Shown: positions 9,238 through 22,255 of the stretch, piece after piece
Layout of the letters: each line of letters opens with the position of its first letter
Position numbering within the stretch: the stretch's first letter is position 1
Program-made: the position numbers and the translations under genes
Notes under the pieces: generated by a model
What the model was told of the DNA's origin: nothing
The model's input: only the letters and a program-made list of their open reading frames with translations
Database searches by the model: none
NCBI GenBank assembly: GCA_023134165.1
Contig: JAGLUZ010000017.1
Location: forward strand, 1-42,407
Direction of reading: 5' to 3'
Source: Deltaproteobacteria bacterium
Lineage (GTDB): Bacteria; Desulfobacterota; GWC2-55-46; DRQE01
DNA: 42,407 nt

Positions 9238-9360
9238 TTAAATAAATCACCTCTTCTATTTAATACTCAAAGATTATGCTAAGAATTTTTTTTTGTCAAG
9301 AGTTGGGTGAAAAAAATAGAAAATACTTGCGATTTTAGTAATTTAGGTATAAAATCTATT

Positions 9361-9948
9361 ATGCGTTCAATTACTCGAAATTCCTTGTGGATACCTGCGT
9401 TTACATTTTTTTTCATTCTCTCTTACGCCTCTATTGCTGAGGCGGGGTATTATAAGTATCGTGACGAGAACGGACAACTTCATATAACAAATGTTCCAAC
9501 AACTGATAAATATAAATGGTTTATGGCCGAAGAGGGTGAGGAGGTTCACCGTGCTCACTCAATTGACGTCTTGATTAGAAGGGCGGCAAAAAAACATGGT
9601 GTTGACTATCCACTCGTTAAGGCCGTTATAAAGGCAGAGAGCAACTTTGAGGTTCGTGCCTTATCAAGGGCAGGTGCAAAGGGGCTTATGCAACTGATGC
9701 CTGCAACTGCAAAGATGCTCGGAGTAAAAGACATCTATGATCCATCAGAGAACGTAAACGGAGGGGTCAAGTTCCTTCGTCATTTACTTGAGAGATTTAA
9801 GTGGAAAGTACCTTTAGCACTTGCCGCCTATAATGCAGGGGAGACGGCTGTTAGAAAATACGGCACAATACCTCCTTATAAAGAAACACGTAATTACGTA
9901 AAAAAAGTTCTTATGTATCAAAATATATATAATCTGAGTTCTCACTAA
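9361..9948 (+). CDS. lytic transglycosylase (SLT domain) with DUF4124-like N-terminal segment
   Basis: Catalytic AESNF...GAKGLMQLMP...AYNAG motifs. ATG at 9361 gives an immediate signal peptide (MRSITRNSLWIPAFTFFFILSYASIAEA). The tracked GTG at 9307 is an alternative start. Confidence 0.85.
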   Translation: MRSITRNSLWIPAFTFFFILSYASIAEAGYYKYRDENGQLHITNVPTTDKYKWFMAEEGEEVHRAHSIDVLIRRAAKKHGVDYPLVKAVIKAESNFEVRALSRAGAKGLMQLMPATAKMLGVKDIYDPSENVNGGVKFLRHLLERFKWKVPLALAAYNAGETAVRKYGTIPPYKETRNYVKKVLMYQNIYNLSSH

Positions 9949-9968: not shown

Positions 9969-10610
9969 ATGATTGGAATAAACCCAAAGGGCGGAATACG
10001 CAATAACCTTCCCAATATTCTCTCACTCATCAGAATAGGTGCAACCCCTATTCTGATATTAATGCTCCTTGACCCAGGGAAGGTCTTAAGCATTCTTGCG
10101 ACCATATTGTTTTTAGTCGTTGCACTAACTGACTGGCTAGACGGATACCTTGCCCGGAGGATGGGGCTTGTGACGCGGGTTGGAAAGTTCCTTGACCCGC
10201 TTGCTGATAAGCTACTGATAATATCAGCTCTCATAATGCTAATCTCCTTGGACAGGGCTCCTGCTTGGATGGTCACCCTAATCGTTGCTCGTGAGATAGC
10301 TGTAACAGGGCTTAGGACAATGGCCTTGGAGGCTGGAGTAGTAATCTCAGCGAGTATCGCTGGTAAGACAAAGACTGTTTTTCAGATTGCTGCAGTTGTC
10401 CCGCTTCTAATTCATTACCCCTTCTTTGGTATCGAGTTTCAGTACCTAGGGGAGGCTATTTTGTGGTTGGCCTTTATTTTAACAATCTACTCTGGTGTTG
10501 AGTATTTTATCAAGTTTAATAAACACGAGCAGGAAAAAGGAAGCTCATCGGCTGAACCAGATAGTTCAGAGTTGGGTGACGAGATAGAAGATAATGACAA
10601 CAATGATTAG
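9969..10610 (+). CDS. pgsA: CDP-diacylglycerol--glycerol-3-phosphate 3-phosphatidyltransferase
   Basis: CDP-alcohol phosphatidyltransferase motif DWLDGYLARRMG...GKFLDPLADK; multi-TM; unusual acidic C-terminal tail. Confidence 0.88.
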   Translation: MIGINPKGGIRNNLPNILSLIRIGATPILILMLLDPGKVLSILATILFLVVALTDWLDGYLARRMGLVTRVGKFLDPLADKLLIISALIMLISLDRAPAWMVTLIVAREIAVTGLRTMALEAGVVISASIAGKTKTVFQIAAVVPLLIHYPFFGIEFQYLGEAILWLAFILTIYSGVEYFIKFNKHEQEKGSSSAEPDSSELGDEIEDNDNND

Positions 10611-10673: not shown

Positions 10674-12260
10674 ATGAAAAAAATATCTATGAAAGCATTT
10701 ACCCTTGGTCTTTTATTTTTGGTAGCTATTGTCTTTACAGGATGCGTTTCGACAGGAACAATCCATGACGCTGCATTTGCAGGAGATTTAGAAAAAGTCA
10801 AAGTGCATCTTGATAAAGGCGTCGATGTGAATTTAAAGACTACTAAGGGTGAGACACCCTTGGTCATTGCTACGTTTAAGGGAATGCCTCTGGTTGCAAA
10901 GGCACTCATTGATAACGGTGCAGATGTTAATGCAAAAAGCCAGTATGGTGATACCCCATTAACATGGAGCATAACTAAAGGGATGTTTCAGATTACGAAG
11001 TTGCTCATTGAGCGTGGTGCTGATGTGAACACAAAGAATAACAAAGGGACTCCCCCTTTAGTTATTGCTGTCTCTAATAAAAATTATCAGTCTTCGAAGT
11101 TACTTATTGAAAAAGGTGCTGATATAAATGCAAAGACAGTGGATAATGATACACCCTTGATCCTTGCTACGTTTAAGGAGATGCATCTGATTGCAAAAAT
11201 ACTCATAGAGAAGGGCGCAAATGTTAATGCAAAAAATAAGAGTGGTTTTACACCCTTGCTCTTTGCTGGGTCTAAGGGGATGCCGAAGGTCGCGAAGCTG
11301 CTTCTTGAGAGGGGCGCTGATGTTAATGCAAGGAGTAATGATGGCATGACCCCCTTGATGTATGCTACGTCTGAGGGGATGTCACAGACTGCGAAGTTAC
11401 TTATTGAAAACGGCGCTGATGTGAATGCAGAAAATAAATTTGGACAGACGGCCTTATTTTATTCTTTGTTCAAAAAAATGTCTCAGGTGTCAAGATTACT
11501 CATAGAGAAGGGCGCCGATGTGAATGTAAAGTCAATCAATAATGATACCCCCTTACACTTCGCGGTTTCTATGGGGTTGCCTCAGATTACAAAATTACTC
11601 ATAGAGAAGGGTGCTGATTTAAACGTAAAAAATATACATGGACAGACGGCCTTAATGAGTGCAGAAAAATTAGGCAATACTCAGATGATATCTCTCTTAA
11701 AGAAAGAGAGTGCTAAGAAGAGAAGGGTCGAGGTAGCGTTCTTAAAGAAAAAACAACCATGCTCATTAAAAGAGATGGACTGGATTTACAAAAAAGGGAA
11801 GTGTCGAAATAAACTTGCAAATGGCAAGGGCCACGCCGTTCATATTGACGGTAACCTCACCTTTGAGGGGAACTTTAAAAACGGAAAACGTACTAAGGGA
11901 GTTATATTGGCTGGAGCAACCCCCATGTATGACGGCCCTATAGTTAAAGGCAAACCAAATGGTGATGGCATTTGCTTTCATGAGGGTGAACCAGAGAGTT
12001 GTAAGTACTATAAAGGCAAACGGGTTGACGCACTCTTTAAGCAGAGGATAGAACTTACAAAACATAGAATCGAGCAACAAAAGGCCATGGATGAACAAAA
12101 CAGAAAGCTCGATGCCAAACTTAAGAAGATAAAGGCGGCCAACACATACCGTGCGCCAGTGGTAGCAGCCGGAGGCGGTAAAGGTAGTGGAGTAGGCGAC
12201 GCCATAATGGGTAAGGTTTTAGACAAAGGGTTAGACATGCTCTTTGATAAATTGTTTTAA
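10674..12260 (+). CDS. ankyrin-repeat lipoprotein A (about 10 ANK repeats plus 168-aa conserved C-terminal module)
   Basis: Signal peptide with lipobox VFTG-C. 33-aa units TPLxxAxxxGxxxxxKLLIExGADVNxK. C-terminal QPC...NTYRAP...MLFDKLF module at 11754-12257. AAGGAG RBS. Confidence 0.85.
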   Translation: MKKISMKAFTLGLLFLVAIVFTGCVSTGTIHDAAFAGDLEKVKVHLDKGVDVNLKTTKGETPLVIATFKGMPLVAKALIDNGADVNAKSQYGDTPLTWSITKGMFQITKLLIERGADVNTKNNKGTPPLVIAVSNKNYQSSKLLIEKGADINAKTVDNDTPLILATFKEMHLIAKILIEKGANVNAKNKSGFTPLLFAGSKGMPKVAKLLLERGADVNARSNDGMTPLMYATSEGMSQTAKLLIENGADVNAENKFGQTALFYSLFKKMSQVSRLLIEKGADVNVKSINNDTPLHFAVSMGLPQITKLLIEKGADLNVKNIHGQTALMSAEKLGNTQMISLLKKESAKKRRVEVAFLKKKQPCSLKEMDWIYKKGKCRNKLANGKGHAVHIDGNLTFEGNFKNGKRTKGVILAGATPMYDGPIVKGKPNGDGICFHEGEPESCKYYKGKRVDALFKQRIELTKHRIEQQKAMDEQNRKLDAKLKKIKAANTYRAPVVAAGGGKGSGVGDAIMGKVLDKGLDMLFDKLF

Positions 12261-12421
12261 GTGAAAGTTTTAACTTGTTAATTATCGTAGGTAATAACTA
12301 AAAAAAGTAGCGGAAAATTGATTTTATTTTATTCTTCTTGAGATTTTTTACTTTCTTTGAAAGATCACCAAGACTTTCTTCCAATAGGGTTTTTTTAAAG
12401 TTCTATATCCGAGGGAAGGCC

Positions 12422-13390
12422 ATGAGAATATCAATATCAAAATACCTCTTTTTCTTACAGTTCGTCCTCGTAAGTATCTTGTGTGGTTGCCAAAGCACTT
12501 CATTCCACAATGCGATAAAGACTGGAAATCCGGCTGAGATTATCACCTTTCTTGAGCTAGGCACTGATGTGGACGCTACCACAGAGTTTGGTTATACGCC
12601 CTTAACCTACAGCGTAAAACACGGCAACCTGCAAGCCGTAAATTTATTAATTGCTAAGGGAGCAGATGTAAACCTAAAGGACGATTACGGCTTCTCTCCT
12701 TTAATGTATAGTGCCAAGTATGGCTACCTCCAGATTACTGAGGCCTTAATTGTAAGCGGTGCAGATGTAAATATAAAAAATGAATCTGGTTTTACCCCCT
12801 TGCTCTACGTAGCCAAATACGGGTATTTTCAAATATTACAGGTCTTGATTGAGCAGGGTAGTAAGGTAGAAACAACTGACAACTTTGGGTATACACCGCT
12901 GATGGCATCCTCTGAGTATGGTTGTTTTCCTTGCGTTGACTTACTACTAAAGTCTGGGGCAAATGTAGATGCAAGGAATAAACCTGGTTTTACCTCTTTG
13001 ATGTTAGCCTCCCTAAGCGGAAGGGCGCACGTCATAGGGCGGCTCATTCAAGGCGGGGCAATTGTTAATGCAAAGGGCAGGTTTGGTTTTACACCACTTA
13101 CATATGCCGCAATGGGCGGACATACCTTGACTGCCTCGGTTTTACTTAAGTCAGGGGCAGATGTAAATACCAAGAATGATCATTCATATACGCCTTTAAT
13201 GTACGCAGTACTCTTTGCAGGAGATAGAGGGGATACCACTACCATAACGCTACTCCTTAATAGTGGTGCTGATCCAAGGCTTGCGAATAACTCGTGCGTT
13301 ACAGCTAAGGAGATGGCCTACGGCCTTTACAGTGAGAACATCATGAGTGCGATTAATACGGCCTGGAATAGCAAAAAAGCAGACAGATAA
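12422..13390 (+). CDS. ankyrin-repeat lipoprotein B (about 8 ANK repeats, no C-terminal module)
   Basis: ATG at 12422 gives MRISISKYLFFLQFVLVSILCG-C (lipobox) behind GAGGGAAGG. The tracked TTG at 12338 adds a non-signal extension. Ends in a YGLYS...AIN cap. Confidence 0.8.
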   Translation: MRISISKYLFFLQFVLVSILCGCQSTSFHNAIKTGNPAEIITFLELGTDVDATTEFGYTPLTYSVKHGNLQAVNLLIAKGADVNLKDDYGFSPLMYSAKYGYLQITEALIVSGADVNIKNESGFTPLLYVAKYGYFQILQVLIEQGSKVETTDNFGYTPLMASSEYGCFPCVDLLLKSGANVDARNKPGFTSLMLASLSGRAHVIGRLIQGGAIVNAKGRFGFTPLTYAAMGGHTLTASVLLKSGADVNTKNDHSYTPLMYAVLFAGDRGDTTTITLLLNSGADPRLANNSCVTAKEMAYGLYSENIMSAINTAWNSKKADR

Positions 13391-13477: not shown

Positions 13478-14554
13478 ATGTTTGTGAAAAAATCATTAGG
13501 ACTCTTTACAATTTTATTAATGACATTATTTTTTTCAGGTTGCACCACAATAAGTACTACAGATAATGCCGCAATGCATGGTACCAGAACTCAATTAATT
13601 AATTTATCAAATAGTGGGGTTAATCTTAAGCAAAAAAATGCTAGTGGTTATAGCCCTCTTGCATATGCCGCAATGGGAGGCAATTCAGCAACAGCAAAGT
13701 ACTTAATAGAAATCGGTGCTGACGTAAATGTTAAAAACAATGCCGGGTACACTCCTTTGATGTTTGCCGCCCTCTATGCCTCAAAAACTGGGCAAACAGG
13801 TATCATCAATACACTTCTTGATAATGGTGCAGATCCAAATTTAAGAAATAATTCAGGTAAGACAGCCGCTACCTTATCATATGGTCTTTATAGCTATACC
13901 GTAGTTAATGCAATAAATGCCGCCGCACAAAGAAAGGCACTCGCCAAGCAAAGAAAGATAGCTGAAGATAAAAGAAAGGTAGAGGCTGAAAGGCAAAGGG
14001 TTTTGGAGCAGAAGAAAAAAGATGAACTCTTGGCATTAATAAAGAAACAACCTTGTGTTCTAAAAGACATGAGCTGGATTTATATTAGCGGTGGTTGCGG
14101 AAAAAAATACGCTAATGGTGAGGGGAGTGCAATAAATATCTCACAAAATACAAGTTTTGATGGTAAATTTAAATACGGCAAGATGATCTCAGGAATTACC
14201 TACTCTGGATTAAAGAGAAATAATCGCACCTTAATCTTTGATGGTGCGCTTAGGAACGGCACACCAAATGGTGAGGGGATGTGTTTTTATAAGGGTGCGC
14301 CAGAAAAATGTGAGTACTATATGGGTAGTAGAGTAGACTTTCTCCATAAGCAAAGAGCTGAGCTTGAGTCTCAGAGGGCGGCCATGAATGAACAAAACAG
14401 AAAGATGGACGCCAAACTTAAAGAGATGCAAAAGGTCAACACATACCGCGCACCTACGCCAGTAAGCCGTGGTGGTGGCTCTGCCGCAGGTGACAAGATA
14501 ATGAATAAGGTTATTGATAAGGGTATTGGAATGCTCTTTGATCAGTTATTTTAA
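13478..14554 (+). CDS. ankyrin-repeat lipoprotein C (about 3 ANK repeats, coiled coil, 168-aa C-terminal module)
   Basis: Lipobox FFSG-C; GGAGGA RBS. The ANK units are homologous to the last units of gene B. Module at 14048-14551. Confidence 0.85.
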   Translation: MFVKKSLGLFTILLMTLFFSGCTTISTTDNAAMHGTRTQLINLSNSGVNLKQKNASGYSPLAYAAMGGNSATAKYLIEIGADVNVKNNAGYTPLMFAALYASKTGQTGIINTLLDNGADPNLRNNSGKTAATLSYGLYSYTVVNAINAAAQRKALAKQRKIAEDKRKVEAERQRVLEQKKKDELLALIKKQPCVLKDMSWIYISGGCGKKYANGEGSAINISQNTSFDGKFKYGKMISGITYSGLKRNNRTLIFDGALRNGTPNGEGMCFYKGAPEKCEYYMGSRVDFLHKQRAELESQRAAMNEQNRKMDAKLKEMQKVNTYRAPTPVSRGGGSAAGDKIMNKVIDKGIGMLFDQLF

Positions 14555-14578: not shown

Positions 14579-16303
14579 ATGAAAAAAATATTTCCTAAGG
14601 TGGCCTTTCTTTTATTGCCGCTCATTGCTCTTGCTTTTGGAGGTTGCCAAACTATGTCACCGCTTCATAGTGCGGCAACCCAAAAGAACCTGACTCAGAT
14701 GCATGCCCTGCTTGACGGTGGTGCTGATATTAACAAAAAAGACTCCAGGGGAAATACCCCTTTGAGTTACGTCTCTATGCAAGATAATACAAGTGCCGCA
14801 ACAGTACTTATAAAGCGCGGGGCTGATGTTAATATTGGTAATAATACAAATATGACCCCTCTTATGTGGGCTACATTTAAATCAAATATAGACCTAACTA
14901 GGTTACTAATTGAAAATGGTGCTGACGTTAATGCGGCCGATAAAAATAAGTACTCAGCTCTTATGTGGACTGTTATGGGTGCAGAGCAGTCTGCAATTGG
15001 TCAAAGAGTTAGGAGTTCCCCAAAAAATGATGCTGCTAATAGAATTAAGGTACTAGAACTTTTAATTGAGAACGGAGCGAAGATTGAGGGCGCGCACCCC
15101 AATTTAAAACCCCAGAAGTATGCAAAAATGACAAAGAGAATGGATATATCCAATTTCTTAGAGGGTGCGGCACAGAGACAAAAGGTGATGAAGAATATGT
15201 TTCCTATTCATTTAGCTGCTTACAATGGGGACATTTCAAAGCTTAAGACCTTGCTCCGCAAAGGCAAGCACGTTGACTATCCTGATACAACAGGTAATAC
15301 CCCTTTAATTTGGGCAGTATCAGCGGGTCACTTAAAGACGGCTGAGTTTCTTATTAAAAACGGGGCTAAGGTAAACCACTTCGGCAAGCATAATCAGACA
15401 GCCCTAAAGACTGCGGCTCTTTATGGTCACCTGAAGATAATTGAGATGCTCGTAGCCACCAAAGGTGCAGATCTTGAATTTAAAAATGAGGCCAGTGAGA
15501 CTGCTCTCTTTGTAGCGGCAAAGGGCGGTTTTCTGGAGGTTATCTCTGTCCTCGTAAAGAAGGGTGCAAAGGTAAACACAATAAACAAAGACGGGGATAC
15601 GCCACTTATGTTTGTCGCTAGAAAGGGTGATAAGGATACCGTCATTCACCTTGCAAAGAGTGGTGCTAGTCTTATGGGTGCTAATAACAAAGGGCTTAGT
15701 GCGCTTAATATGGCAAAGTTAAATAACCATAATTCGATTGCAGAGTACCTAGATAATAGTATAAAAACCGTTGAGATTGCGGCCTTAAAGCAGAAGCAAC
15801 CCTGCATACTAAAGGATCAGAGTTGGATTTACCTAAGCGGAGATTGCCTTAAAGAACTAGCTAATGGTGAGGGCAGTGCCATAAATATCTCAGAGAATAT
15901 CAGCTATGATGGGCAATTTAAAGATGGCAATATGACTACTGGAATATCTTACTCTGGGATAAATAAAGGTAACCGCATATTTGTCTTTGACGGTCCGCTT
16001 AGGAACGGGACTCCAAATGGTGAGGGGATGTGTTTTTATAAGGGTGCGCCAGAAAAATGTGAGTACTATATGGGTGCAAGGGTGGACTTTCTTCATAAGC
16101 AAAGAGCTGAACTTGAGTCTCAGCGTCTTGCTCTTGAGGAACAAAATAGAAAGATGGACGCCAAACTTAAAGAGATACAAAAGGCCAACACGTACCGCGC
16201 TCCAACGCCAGCAAGTAGTAGTGGTGGAAGTGCAGGAGGTAGTAAGATAATGGATAAGGTTATTAATAAGGGTATTGGTATGCTCTTTGATCAGTTATTT
16301 TAG
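14579..16303 (+). CDS. ankyrin-repeat lipoprotein D (about 9-10 ANK repeats in two blocks plus 168-aa C-terminal module)
   Basis: Lipobox AFGG-C. Starts 24 nt after gene C. Module at 15797-16300, about 78 percent identical to that of gene C by hand alignment. Confidence 0.85.
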   Translation: MKKIFPKVAFLLLPLIALAFGGCQTMSPLHSAATQKNLTQMHALLDGGADINKKDSRGNTPLSYVSMQDNTSAATVLIKRGADVNIGNNTNMTPLMWATFKSNIDLTRLLIENGADVNAADKNKYSALMWTVMGAEQSAIGQRVRSSPKNDAANRIKVLELLIENGAKIEGAHPNLKPQKYAKMTKRMDISNFLEGAAQRQKVMKNMFPIHLAAYNGDISKLKTLLRKGKHVDYPDTTGNTPLIWAVSAGHLKTAEFLIKNGAKVNHFGKHNQTALKTAALYGHLKIIEMLVATKGADLEFKNEASETALFVAAKGGFLEVISVLVKKGAKVNTINKDGDTPLMFVARKGDKDTVIHLAKSGASLMGANNKGLSALNMAKLNNHNSIAEYLDNSIKTVEIAALKQKQPCILKDQSWIYLSGDCLKELANGEGSAINISENISYDGQFKDGNMTTGISYSGINKGNRIFVFDGPLRNGTPNGEGMCFYKGAPEKCEYYMGARVDFLHKQRAELESQRLALEEQNRKMDAKLKEIQKANTYRAPTPASSSGGSAGGSKIMDKVINKGIGMLFDQLF

Positions 16304-16374: not shown

Positions 16375-16451
16375 GCCCTCGTAGCTCAGCAGGATAGAGC
16401 ATCGGATTCCTAATCCGTGTGTCGGACGTTCGAGTCGTCTCGAGGGCGCCA
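16375..16451 (+). tRNA. tRNA-Arg (anticodon CCT), CCA encoded
   Basis: Hand-folded cloverleaf. Acceptor GCCCTCG/CGAGGGC. D arm GCTC-agcaggata-GAGC. Anticodon loop TTCCTAA. T arm GGACG-TTCGAGT-CGTCT. Discriminator G plus CCA. One T-T mismatch at the base of the anticodon stem. Confidence 0.9.
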
Positions 16452-16570: not shown

Positions 16571-16598
16571 TTGACTAATCTTCATGAAATGATATAAT
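16571..16598 (+). promoter_or_regulatory. near-consensus sigma70 promoter
   Basis: TTGACT (16571-16576), 16-nt spacer, TATAAT (16593-16598). Confidence 0.5.
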
Positions 16599-16604
16599 AT
16601 AAGA

Positions 16605-16741
16605 AATAGAGAAACAACCCCTTTGCTCAGAGCAAACTCAGGGAAACTTGAGGACGCAGAGTTACGAAGCTTAAAGAGATAAAAAAAATCTTTTTATGTT
16701 GGTCGAACCGCCAAAGATAAACATCCTTGGGCGGTTTTTTT
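16605..16741 (+). ncRNA. candidate small RNA or leader (about 135 nt) between promoter and intrinsic terminator
   Basis: Bounded by the promoter above and the terminator at 16708-16741. Contains internal hairpins, including CTCAGG-GAAA-CTTGAG with a GNRA loop. No ORF with an RBS. Confidence 0.3.
16708..16741 (+). terminator. intrinsic terminator
   Basis: CCGCCAAAG (16708-16716) pairs with CTTGGGCGG (16726-16734) with one internal mismatch, followed by T7 (16735-16741). Confidence 0.7.
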
Positions 16742-16769: not shown

Positions 16770-17252
16770 ATGAGTATACCAATGAGAACATTCATGCCAA
16801 ATGAGCTAAATCTGGTCGAGAAGACTCTTGTAAACGGCATCATGGCCGCCAGAGATGGGCGTTATCTTGACGCACTTACAATCTTTGAAGCCAACATAAG
16901 CAGAAATGTAGATATGTCAAACAATCCTTTAGCAATGTCTTACTACGGACTTTGCATGGGGATAATCAAGAAAAAATACGCCGACGGCGCTGCAATTTGC
17001 CTAAAGGCCTTAAAGAGAAATACTCAGAGTCCAGAGGCTTATCTAAATATCTCCAAGATTCTTCTTCTTCAGGGGCAAAAAACCTTGGCAGTGAAGGCTC
17101 TAAAAAAAGGACTTTCTTTTAACAAAACCCATCCAGCTCTTTGTAAGGAAATCAGCAGGCTTGGTCTTAGAAAAAGACCTGTTCTTTCTGCACTTGGTCG
17201 TTCCAATCCAATAAATGTCTTACTCGGAAAAGTAAGGGCGGCGATAGCTTAG
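16770..17252 (+). CDS. small TPR-like repeat protein
   Basis: 160 aa, helical-repeat pattern (ALTIFEANIS..., EAYLNISKILLLQGQKTLAVKALKKGL), GGGGGA RBS. Confidence 0.45.
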   Translation: MSIPMRTFMPNELNLVEKTLVNGIMAARDGRYLDALTIFEANISRNVDMSNNPLAMSYYGLCMGIIKKKYADGAAICLKALKRNTQSPEAYLNISKILLLQGQKTLAVKALKKGLSFNKTHPALCKEISRLGLRKRPVLSALGRSNPINVLLGKVRAAIA

Positions 17253-17412: not shown

Positions 17413-18339
17413 CTATCCCCTTGGGTGAAATTTGTTATGAAGTTTTCGAAGTCTTTCTTTTGTGACGTGAGTATAAATCTGCGTTGCAGAAATATCAGCG
17501 TGACCAAGCATCTCTTGAACTGCTCGAAGGTCTGCTCCTCGCTCTAAAAGATGGGTTGCAAAACTGTGACGAAGAATGTGCGGCTTAACCTTGGCTCTAT
17601 TAATTTTGGCTTTGACCGCATATTTTTTTAGAATATGCCAAAAATTTTGCCTAGTCATGGACTTACCCCTTGAGGTTAAAAAAAGCTCCATTGAGTTAAC
17701 TGAACCTTGAAACGCCTCCCTGCTCTCCTCCATGTACCTGACAACCCAAACCATAGCCTCCTCTCCAAAAGGCACTATACGCTCTTTTGAGCCTTTACCG
17801 AGTGTTTTTAAGCAACCCGTCTGAAGATTCAAATCATTTAATTTAAGCGAGGTTAGCTCTGAAACCCTAAGGCCCGTAGCATACATTACCTCAATCATGG
17901 CTCTGTCACGCAGACCATTTCTGGTGGAAACATCTGGAGCGTAAATTAAATCCAAGACCTCAGCGGTGCTTAAAAATTCAGGGAGACGTTTCTCAAGTTT
18001 TGGAATCTCAATTAGGGCAGTCGGCAGAGTCGATATAAGATCTCTCTTTAAGAGGCTTCGATAAAATCCTCTAACAACAACAAGGTGTCTTGCCATGGTA
18101 CGCGTGCTGAGGCTGGTTTTTTTCAGGAAAGCGAGAAATTTTCTAATCTCATCTGGTGTGACACTGATTAGGGTTGAGCCTATTTGCGTGATAAATTTAT
18201 TAAATTTATTTAGATCTCGCTCGTAGGATTCGCAGGTATTCTTTGAAAGCCCTTTCTCAGTGATAATAGAATTAATGTACTCTACTACGAGTTGAGCCCT
18301 ATCAATTTGTTTTTTCATTCTCTTCAGCTTCACCTTCAA
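17413..18339 (-). CDS. xerD: tyrosine recombinase XerD
   Basis: Strong similarity to E. coli XerD blocks (LRDRAMIEVMYATGLRVSEL, MTRQNFWHILKKYA, HILRHSFATHLLERGADLRAVQEMLGHADISATQIYTHV, ERLRKLHNKFHPRG). Overlaps the glnD 3' end by 38 nt. Confidence 0.9.
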   Translation of the reverse strand: MKVKLKRMKKQIDRAQLVVEYINSIITEKGLSKNTCESYERDLNKFNKFITQIGSTLISVTPDEIRKFLAFLKKTSLSTRTMARHLVVVRGFYRSLLKRDLISTLPTALIEIPKLEKRLPEFLSTAEVLDLIYAPDVSTRNGLRDRAMIEVMYATGLRVSELTSLKLNDLNLQTGCLKTLGKGSKERIVPFGEEAMVWVVRYMEESREAFQGSVNSMELFLTSRGKSMTRQNFWHILKKYAVKAKINRAKVKPHILRHSFATHLLERGADLRAVQEMLGHADISATQIYTHVTKERLRKLHNKFHPRG

Positions 18340-20980: not shown

Positions 20981-22255
20981 TTACAATCCCTCACCTTTGT
21001 CGTAACTAATTATCGCCTGAGCTATGGCCTCAGCAATGTCATCAATATATTTATTTGTCCGAAGTCTTTTCTCTGACTTAGGGTTGCTGATAAAAGAGGT
21101 CTCTACAAGGACGCTTGGCATATTGGATTTAACGAGTACATAAAAAAGTGCCTCTTTAACTCCGTTGCTTTTTATCCCGGAGTATTTTTTTGAGAGCCTC
21201 TTTGCAAGTCTATCCTGAATAAGATTTGCAACTCTAATGGAACCATTACGGTTTGTTGTATTCATCATACTGCTAAGTATGCTTTGTAGGATATCGCTGC
21301 TTTTACTAATCTCTTCTATGGTAGAAAAATTTTCTCTGGCAGAGACCCGAAGCGCTTCCTTATCTTTTGCTTTTCCAAGGTAGTAGGTCTCAACCCCTGA
21401 GGCCTTTCTATTTGGACTTGCATTGACGTGGATTGAAACAAAGAGATCTGCATCCTTACTATTTGCAATTGCAGTTCTTTCATCAAGCGGGATAAAAACG
21501 TCTTTTGTTCTTGTTAAGATTATTTTTGCTTTAAGTTTTTTTGAGAGTTTTTTCTTAACTTTTTTTGCAATCTTAAGGGTTACGTCCTTCTCAAAAAGTT
21601 TGCGTTTTCCTACAGCACCAGGATCCTTACCACCGTGCCCTGGGTCTAAGACAATTATATTTAAACCACTTGAAGAGGATTTTATAGCTTTTGCTTTTTG
21701 ATCAATTATTTTTTTAGCTTTTTCTTTTTTTTCTTTTACCTTTTCTGGAGTTTTTATTTCAACCTTTGAAGTGGAGGTTTTCTTGCCAGTCCCTGTAACG
21801 TCAATAACAATTCTAAATGGGTTTGTTAGAGGAAATACTGTAAAATCCTCAAGAGTTTCAATATCGAGAACAACACGAACAGTACTTGTATCAAATTGTC
21901 CAGTACGAATATTCTTTAGTAAACCGTCATTTACAGGGATTGCCCTTGAGACCCCCTCACCGATAAACGCACCTTTGATATCAACATAAAGGCGACGAGG
22001 TTTATTCATTGAGGTGTCTTTATTTAAAAGTTTGTATTTAAATTCTGCTTTTTCTTTAAGGTCTAAAACAACGCGAGTGTAATTTGGCCCAGAACGATGC
22101 CTTATATCTTTAAGCTCAATTTTCCCACTTTTTCCGTCAACAATGCTTGCCGGAGTTATAAAGAACCCTGCAATTACTAGAAGGACTACACGAAAGATAA
22201 GAGAATTTAGAAAAGTTCTTTTTGTGGTAATAATATCAAGAAGAGAAGTAAACAA
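20981..22255 (-). CDS. N-acetylmuramoyl-L-alanine amidase with N-terminal AMIN domain (AmiC-like)
   Basis: AMIN-like (YTRVVLDL...RVVLDI), Lys-rich linker, Amidase_3 motifs (VLDPGHGGKDPGA, SIHVNA, ETSFISN). Confidence 0.88.
   Translation of the reverse strand: MFTSLLDIITTKRTFLNSLIFRVVLLVIAGFFITPASIVDGKSGKIELKDIRHRSGPNYTRVVLDLKEKAEFKYKLLNKDTSMNKPRRLYVDIKGAFIGEGVSRAIPVNDGLLKNIRTGQFDTSTVRVVLDIETLEDFTVFPLTNPFRIVIDVTGTGKKTSTSKVEIKTPEKVKEKKEKAKKIIDQKAKAIKSSSSGLNIIVLDPGHGGKDPGAVGKRKLFEKDVTLKIAKKVKKKLSKKLKAKIILTRTKDVFIPLDERTAIANSKDADLFVSIHVNASPNRKASGVETYYLGKAKDKEALRVSARENFSTIEEISKSSDILQSILSSMMNTTNRNGSIRVANLIQDRLAKRLSKKYSGIKSNGVKEALFYVLVKSNMPSVLVETSFISNPKSEKRLRTNKYIDDIAEAIAQAIISYDKGEGL

Follow-up and report, generated by a model that had tools for sequence, protein, structure and literature searches.

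The locus considered here raises the question of what a shared protein C-terminus is and what it does for the proteins that carry it. Three neighboring ankyrin-repeat genes (A, C, and D) in a 42,407-nucleotide stretch of contig JAGLUZ010000017.1 (Deltaproteobacteria bacterium, assembly GCA_023134165.1; hereafter the window) end in the same module, and the contig is a scaffold of 125 kb assembled from sample RS_11 (PRJNA707313) of a metagenome of the Site-F cold seep in the South China Sea (PMC9357000). Our best explanation, held tentatively and at somewhat less than an even chance, is that this is a composite C-terminal module of exported, mostly lipid-anchored envelope proteins that acts as a scaffold-and-docking base. 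The structural layout of the module is well supported by the evidence below, from which we infer the function.

The module runs from a QPC motif to the terminal Phe, and the translations confirm that it is exactly 168 residues in all three genes (Table 1), aligning throughout and containing every one of the motifs that a first, sequence-only reading of this DNA had listed as shared. The equal length is itself accidental, as alignment indels of 5, 4, and 1 amino acids cancel each other out. Copy A is 54 to 56% identical in amino acid sequence to copies C and D, which are 78% identical to one another. The rate of synonymous substitution (dS) is 0.67 between C and D and approximately 1.6 between A and either of these (range, 0.67 to 1.65), with ratios of nonsynonymous to synonymous rates (dN/dS) of 0.20 to 0.23. 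These are old paralogues on which purifying selection has acted, and the combination of dS values of 0.67 to 1.65 with dN/dS near 0.2 indicates that their similarity reflects constraint rather than chance or recent conversion. For the likeness between C and D in particular, a dS of 0.67 rules out recent gene conversion as the source. There is no fourth module copy in the window, and no other open reading frame (ORF) there has the tail motif at its end.

Conservation extends well beyond this locus. We performed an exhaustive search of 1.84 billion representative proteins with a profile built from the three copies, which returned 276 relatives at E values of ≤1e-3, 133 at ≤1e-10, and 43 at ≤1e-30; at 50% identity, the family amounts to about 276 clusters. 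The best matches span profile positions 1 to 168 and always finish at the final residue of the protein, with about 75 of the best 150 relatives having the full unit at the extreme C-terminus and ending in [FL][DNE]x[LF][FW]. A word-indexed homologue search found no proteins with module C alone and two with a 39-sequence family alignment, and a first genome scan with window-specific peptide patterns gave no match. Patterns drawn from a 5-sequence alignment did work in scans of genomes and metagenomes (the 39-sequence alignment being too diverse for patterns) and located carriers in Gammaproteobacteria and Nitrospirota/Nitrospira metagenome-assembled genomes (MAGs), with many on marine or sediment metagenome contigs. 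Tandem arrays also occur elsewhere, with three module genes in a Gammaproteobacteria MAG (L002; JAUVDT010000051.1, 2-4544) and two in a metagenome contig (L008; 157-3416).

Column statistics from the 39-sequence alignment show which features belong to the family. Positions C3, W10, C17, G24, G26, G39, G44, G49, G66, P73, G75, E86, C88, G93, R95, D97, R103, L167, and F168 are invariant (39/39), C79, F164, and G77 are kept in 38 of the 39 sequences, and D165 and G71 are kept in 33. Among the motifs, the EPExC, GxRxD, and KQR positions are invariant as well. The module therefore remains conserved when homologues from outside the locus are aligned, as proposed from the sequence alone, and this includes its four Cys (38/39 for C79 and 39/39 for the others). 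Two of the elements previously listed as shared are not kept as such across the family: NTYRAP is present in the three local copies and conserved among these only, and the Gly/Ser-rich stretch persists as a low-complexity region rich in Ser, Gly, Gln, and Asn, a linker of variable length in which the exact Gly-rich stretch is not kept.

The four Cys are also kept at 90% or more in distant relatives that lack the tail. Ten such relatives (P0107, P0115, P0124, P0125, P0127, P0132, P0135, P0140, P0144, and P0146) have the Cys-MORN-helix core followed by 150 to 300 extra C-terminal residues without a Pfam match, and they end in Cys motifs (CxxxC/CxxC in several, e.g., ...CGNPNCEE and ...SACSACN) and not in FDxLF. 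These short terminal motifs may represent an alternative terminal device. Pfam scans of the tail-less relatives found no known C-terminal domain that would hint at the role of the tail.

Roughly the first 97 residues of the module are built from MORN repeats. A profile search against the PDB matched MORN1 (6t4r; E = 1.5e-8), FAP266 (2.5e-6), junctophilin-1 (7rw4; 5.4e-5), RSPH1 (1.7e-4), and MORN4 (5e-4), and 20 of the 39 family modules matched Pfam MORN at E ≤ 0.1 (best, 4.6e-5). The window copies themselves fall below the 22.5-bit gathering threshold of this model (PF02493), with no match for A or C and 11.3 bits (E = 0.35) for D. The signature YxGxWxxGxxxGxG recurs with a period of about 23 residues at positions 12 to 34, 37 to 59, and 64 to 86, with the second repeat lacking the GxG pair, and is followed by a half repeat at 91 to 97. 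An AlphaFold2 (AF2) model built on the 39-sequence alignment has a mean predicted local distance difference test (pLDDT) score of 84.8, with values of >90 over residues 1 to 130 and disorder at residues 140 to 148; with the 3-sequence alignment, the pLDDT reached only 42. In a Foldseek comparison of the model with the PDB, nearly all of the top 30 matches were MORN proteins (RSPH1, MORN3, MORN1, and junctophilins) or the SET7/9 N-domain, at probabilities of 0.9 to 1.0. The MORN-like glycine pattern noticed earlier is thus a genuine MORN fold. About 60% of the module is accordingly a known repeat type and its fold is not new, which qualifies the earlier impression that the combination is not a described domain; that impression does hold for the unit as a whole, since no Pfam or NCBIfam model covers it and it maps cleanly onto no annotated family of known role.

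The four Cys form two close pairs, C3/C17 and C79/C88. Because they are conserved and their carriers are exported lipoproteins, two disulfides, Cys3-Cys17 and Cys79-Cys88, are plausible. Past the invariant GxRxD..(Y/F)KQR motif, the chain continues as a helix in which hydrophobic residues are spaced 3 and 4 apart, as is typical of coiled coils, and the heptad-like segment recognized from the sequence is supported by the helix modeled at residues 98 to 131. The segment that joins this stalk to the tail is variable in length across the family and rich in Ser, Gly, Gln, Asn, Ala, and Thr; between 50 and 100 residues (median, 71; standard deviation, 10) separate D97 from the C-terminus.

The module closes with the tail. 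Across 77 tails, Phe is found at -5 in 74, Asp at -4 in 67, Leu at -2 in 76, and Phe at -1 in 76. The pattern over the last 22 residues comprises a hydrophobic residue at -22, Asp at -20, Ala at -19, Leu or Ile at -18, Lys or Glu at -15, Ala at -14, Lys or Arg at -11, Ala or Val at -10, and Leu or Ile at -6, so that small and charged residues are conserved, hydrophobic ones are paired at a spacing of 4, and the position is strictly C-terminal. Together with the helix predicted by AF2, these statistics bear out the proposal of a conserved terminal helical segment. The motif is confined to module-bearing genes, to which all 34 occurrences among 450 ORFs (approximately 245 kb of related loci) belong.

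The proteins that carry the module are exported, as had been supposed. A lipobox (consensus, [LVI][ASTVI][GAS]C), called by pattern as a hydrophobic stretch followed by [GAS]C, is present in the products of genes A to D and in 52 of the 77 tail-bearing representatives, with most of the others being N-terminally truncated or having a type I signal peptide. Under the +2 rule of Escherichia coli, the absence of Asp after the lipid-modified Cys leads to outer-membrane sorting. The +2 residue in this family is Ala, Gly, Asn, Ser, or Thr and never Asp, which suggests that these lipoproteins are sorted to the outer membrane. Their N-terminal heads (n = 66) are ankyrin in 33 cases, DUF2846 in 4, extra MORN repeats in 4, PDZ in 3, and TonB_C in 1, with the remainder lacking an assignment; the check for other N-terminal domains in combination with the module was therefore positive, and the heads are swapped on a common C-terminal unit.

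Taken together, these features suggest how the module could work. The approximately 97 residues of 3.5 divergent MORN repeats form a beta-hairpin sheet, probably pinned by the two disulfides in the periplasm, and this sheet continues into an alpha-helical stalk of 35 to 45 residues with a heptad pattern. MORN repeats are known for protein-protein interaction and dimerization (PMC7725318), and the MORN "ribs" of junctophilin pack on a helix "backbone" (PMC8916002). By analogy with the repeats of MORN1 and junctophilin, and in view of the heptad pattern of the stalk, sheet and stalk may constitute a stable scaffold that is probably dimeric or oligomeric. The disordered linker rich in Ser, Gly, Gln, and Asn, being of variable length, would serve as a leash for an Ala/Lys/Asp-rich helix of 20 to 22 residues with the nearly invariant ending Phi-F-D-x-L-F-COOH. 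This helix could dock onto a conserved partner, most likely a protein surface or groove presented in trans or on a neighboring subunit. An Ala-rich helix with a conserved Asp and invariant last residues beside a free carboxylate fits a protein interface better than a lipid surface. In this way, the module would provide interchangeable heads (ankyrin, PDZ, DUF2846, and TonB_C) with a shared base that positions or clusters them in the periplasm.

Several observations weigh against this picture. Neighborhood clustering across 27 loci revealed no recurrent neighbor gene family. A profile of the tail by itself had no meaningful match in the PDB or Pfam, leaving the conservation pattern as the argument for docking, and in the AF2 monomer the tail is docked nowhere and has a pLDDT of about 50. 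The Foldseek E values are also modest (around 1e-2), which we attribute to the long helix included in the AF2 model.

The main rival to a scaffold-and-docking base goes back to the suggestion of the sequence-only reading that the proteins are tethered at both ends. In such a two-point membrane tether, the lipid would be inserted in the outer membrane, and the C-terminal amphipathic helix would anchor the protein to the inner membrane from its periplasmic side, in the manner of PBP5. The periplasm would be bridged by MORN sheet, stalk, and linker, as if by a small junctophilin, and the order of MORN repeats, helix, divergent linker, and C-terminal anchor does parallel that protein (PMC8916002). 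The predicted tail helix, its aromatic and hydrophobic ending, and the outer-membrane sorting suggested by the absence of Asp at +2 are all consistent with such a tether. In the best 11-residue window, the hydrophobic moment of the local copies is 0.64, just over the Eisenberg surface line and near the value of 0.66 for the PBP5 tail, but only 40% of family tails pass this line. When 18 residues are considered, the tail has a mean hydrophobicity of 0.02 and a moment of 0.29, no higher than in shuffled sequences (mean z = 0.4; 2.6% with z > 2), and the 6 to 8 charged residues per 18 sum to a net charge of about zero, so that the helix is not cationic. The Asp residues conserved at -4 and -20 are a further point against lipid binding, and the invariant last residues point to specific recognition. 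The length after the MORN part, moreover, is unconstrained at 50 to 100 residues, and TbMORN1 bound neither membranes nor vesicles (PMC7725318). The amphipathicity of the tail is borderline, and the case for a membrane-binding amphipathic helix is not convincing; a membrane element is not favored over docking to a protein, and we consider the two-point tether unlikely, although it ranks first among the alternatives.

Other known C-terminal devices were tried and rejected. The terminal Phe recalls the beta-signal of outer-membrane beta-barrel proteins, but the beta-periodicity moment of the tail (0.16) is below its alpha moment (0.29), AF2 predicts a helix, and there is no barrel domain. A junctophilin-type C-terminal transmembrane helix does not fit a hydrophobicity of about 0.02 and the charge content given above. 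NCBIfam/TIGRFAM and Pfam models of known C-terminal sorting domains (PEP-CTERM, GlyGly-CTERM, the type IX secretion C-terminal domain, LPXTG, etc.) had no matches among the window proteins or the 39 modules, and a type I or type IV secretion signal was discarded for proteins that carry Sec/lipoprotein signal peptides.

A further reading would make these proteins a bacterial counterpart of junctophilin, in which a disulfide-stapled MORN stalk and a leashed FDxLF helix provide outer-membrane lipoproteins with a specific second attachment to a partner associated with the inner membrane or the peptidoglycan. We regard this as doubtful. If true, the proteins would be modular trans-periplasmic tethers that place interchangeable heads (ankyrin, PDZ, or TonB_C) at envelope contact sites.

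Docking could also take the form of recognition by a periplasmic PDZ or tail-specific protease (Prc/CtpA/DegS/DegQ type), with the tail as the recognition peptide and the lipoproteins as adaptors or regulated substrates. As adaptors they would resemble NlpI and LbcA, which are lipoproteins of the outer membrane that likewise contain repeats. The motif is strictly C-terminal and ends in an invariant hydrophobic L-F-COOH, the tail sits on a flexible leash, and fusion of a PDZ domain to the module in 3 of 66 proteins is a Rosetta-stone hint; through these fusions a protease ligand is weakly suggested as a specific subcase of docking. The -2 position as counted for PDZ ligands is nonetheless polar and variable, unlike that of bacterial PDZ ligands such as YxF, conservation over a helix of about 22 residues exceeds the length of a PDZ ligand, and no protease gene is linked to the module at the 27 loci or in the window. 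We judge this reading rather improbable.

We think it improbable too, and slightly more so, that the proteins in their entirety serve for immunity or inhibition in the periplasm and form polyimmunity-like arrays, directed against periplasm-acting toxins or wall hydrolases, with the module only anchoring or multimerizing them. Such arrays would account for the tandem paralogues (4 genes in the window, 3 in L002, and 2 in L008), immunity proteins of an ankyrin type are known (Imm-ank; PMC3482391), the proteins are located in the periplasm, and the window also encodes wall enzymes (SLT and AMIN-amidase). Against this, no toxin, type VI secretion, Rhs, or contact-dependent inhibition gene lies beside any of the 27 loci, where no neighbor is conserved at all, and PADLOC matches arise from the ankyrin repeats alone. 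Purifying selection and conservation across phyla make the module unlike fast-evolving immunity specificity, although the heads could still vary. An immunity function would concern the heads and is compatible with a scaffold-and-docking role for the module.

Ankyrin proteins are common symbiont effectors, and the "eukaryote-like" pairing of ankyrin and MORN repeats could be read as a secreted, eukaryote-directed effector whose tail is a secretion or host-targeting signal. A cold-seep metagenome from a study whose samples included fluids around invertebrate communities (PMC9357000) would suit this reading, but we consider it very improbable given lipobox signal peptides and conserved Cys pairs that point to the cell's own envelope, the occurrence of the family at varied sites in MAGs of both Nitrospirota and Gammaproteobacteria, and the absence of adjacent secretion-system genes at the 27 loci and in the window.

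Table 1. Positions in the window of the module copies, the parts of module C, the genes of the array, and other features mentioned in the text
Feature	Position	Strand	Description
Module copy A	11754-12257	+	168 aa; 54% identical to copy C
Module copy C	14048-14551	+	168 aa, QPC to terminal Phe
Module copy D	15797-16300	+	168 aa; 78% aa and 81% nucleotide identity to copy C
MORN part of module C, residues 1-97	14048-14338	+	3.5 divergent repeats, 7 beta-strands (11-91), Cys3, Cys17, Cys79, Cys88; AF2 pLDDT 93-98
Stalk of module C, residues 98-131	14339-14440	+	long alpha-helix from conserved (Y/F)KQR, heptad-like hydrophobic pattern; AF2 pLDDT 88-95
Linker of module C, residues 132-147	14441-14488	+	low-complexity, flexible; contains locus-specific NTYRAP; pLDDT <50 at residues 140-148
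Tail of module C, residues 148-168	14489-14551	+	terminal helix GDKIMNKVIDKGIGMLFDQLF, family-wide F-D-x-L-F-COOH ending; AF2 helix 148-167, pLDDT ~50
Gene A	10674-12260	+	528 aa; signal peptide, lipobox FTGC (Cys24), ~9 ankyrin repeats, C-terminal module; Pfam ankyrin matches
Gene B	~12419-13390	+	ankyrin lipoprotein paralogue, lipobox LCGC, without module
Gene C	13478-14554	+	358 aa; lipobox FSGC (Cys22), ~3 ankyrin repeats, charged helical spacer, module
Gene D	14579-16303	+	574 aa; lipobox FGGC (Cys23), ankyrin repeats, module
DUF4124+SLT lytic transglycosylase	9307-9948	+	
pgsA	9969-10610		boundary of array
Antisense ORF over module	11766-12098	-	
Antisense ORF over module	15890-16180	-	
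tRNA-Arg(CCT)	16375-16451	+	boundary of array
Promoter-like site	16571-16598		sigma-70-like, 11/12 matches with TG
c-di-GMP-I riboswitch aptamer (RF01051)	16621-16715	+	54.4 bits (gathering score, 35)
ORF	16770-17252		160 aa; no Pfam match
XerD-type tyrosine recombinase	17413-18339	-	
AMIN+Amidase_3 amidase	20981-22255	-	

The module genes of the window belong to an array of four co-oriented ankyrin lipoprotein genes (A to D) bounded by pgsA and a tRNA-Arg(CCT) gene (Table 1). In all four products, a hydrophobic signal sequence that closes with a lipobox precedes the ankyrin repeats. Gene A matches the hidden Markov model of the module family at E = 7e-64, the product of gene C matches a database protein of 356 residues that starts at an internal Met (P0001), and that of gene D is identical to another (P0002). 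The paralogue without the module, gene B, has its closest relatives in gene C as far as its last ankyrin repeats are concerned (residues 197 to 319 are 46% identical to residues 31 to 153 of gene C), and a search for a module relic downstream of gene B found none, which suggests duplication with loss or gain of a module cassette. Long antisense ORFs over the module-coding region recur at 10 related loci in all-versus-all BLAST and were rejected as genes; these shadow ORFs reflect conservation of the coding strand.

The surroundings of the array are ordinary chromosomal and housekeeping genes, encoding a hybrid histidine kinase, NadB, a DUF4124+SLT transglycosylase, PgsA, XerD, GlnD, an AMIN+Amidase_3 amidase, MutS, and a GH57 enzyme. 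At 0.40 to 0.41, the array matches the flanking DNA in GC content. The position between pgsA and a tRNA gene is a typical site for insertions, and the XerD-type recombinase gene lies about 1 kb beyond the tRNA gene, which itself directly follows gene D. The lytic transglycosylase and amidase genes place cell-wall enzymes near the array, an association that is absent at the other loci. In the interval downstream of the tRNA gene there is a cyclic di-GMP (c-di-GMP) riboswitch aptamer scoring well above its gathering cutoff, preceded by the strongest sigma-70-like site of the region and followed by a hairpin with a T-run and then a short ORF, which looks like a c-di-GMP-controlled gene. In a promoter and terminator scan, promoter counts were the same as in shuffled sequence.

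The analysis defines a module that Pfam and NCBIfam do not cover and places MORN repeats, best known from the matched eukaryotic proteins, on exported, probably periplasmic proteins with Cys that suggest disulfides. A near-invariant Phi-F-D-x-L-F-COOH on a leash should have a conserved receptor, which, once found, could reveal a new route of envelope docking or sorting and would explain why one base serves many heads. The alignment can also seed a new domain model and improve the annotation of "hypothetical ankyrin lipoproteins" in metagenomes.

Among systems already described, NlpI, LbcA, Pseudomonas aeruginosa AnkB, and Bdellovibrio Bd3460 are lipid-anchored or periplasmic alpha-solenoid repeat proteins that bind envelope enzymes. 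The likeness to the module proteins would be one of analogy only, as none of these has the MORN-stalk-tail module and there is no homology beyond the repeats. The membrane anchors of E. coli PBP5 and PBP6 (DacA/DacC) are likewise periplasmic terminal helices of about 20 residues with aromatics near the end, and the 11-residue moments are close (0.66 versus 0.64 in the module). The PBP5 tail differs in its hydrophobicity (0.38, versus 0.02 for the whole tail of the module) and in lacking conserved acidic residues, there is no sequence similarity, and family-wide invariance of FDxLF is not expected of a simple lipid-binding helix.

Junctophilins (JPH1/2; 7RW4 and 7RXE) come closer, with the same order of MORN repeats, long alpha-helix, low-complexity region, and C-terminal anchor, a JPH1 match that spans both MORN repeats and helix, and the concept of a two-membrane tether in common (PMC8916002). 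They are eukaryotic and cytosolic and have 8 repeats and a true transmembrane helix, whereas the module tail is too polar to span a membrane; the bacterial proteins in turn add an N-terminal lipid anchor and a head, and superposition of the two is poor (root mean square deviation of about 10 Å). MORN proteins in general (PF02493; MORN1 6T4R/6T4D/6T6Q, MORN4, and RSP1) share with the module the signature (Y/F)xGx(F/I)xxGxxxGxG and the same beta-hairpin sheet. The module differs from these in having only 3.5 repeats, which in the window copies score below the Pfam threshold, four conserved Cys, and exported carriers, where the matched MORN structures are all eukaryotic, and in a fixed stalk helix, linker, and FDxLF tail that are not described for them. 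The combination of a Cys-stapled 3.5-repeat MORN unit with stalk, linker, and FDxLF-COOH is absent from Pfam, NCBIfam, PADLOC, and the searched literature. The MORN part is a known repeat type, and what is new is its fixed C-terminal combination with these elements on exported lipoproteins.

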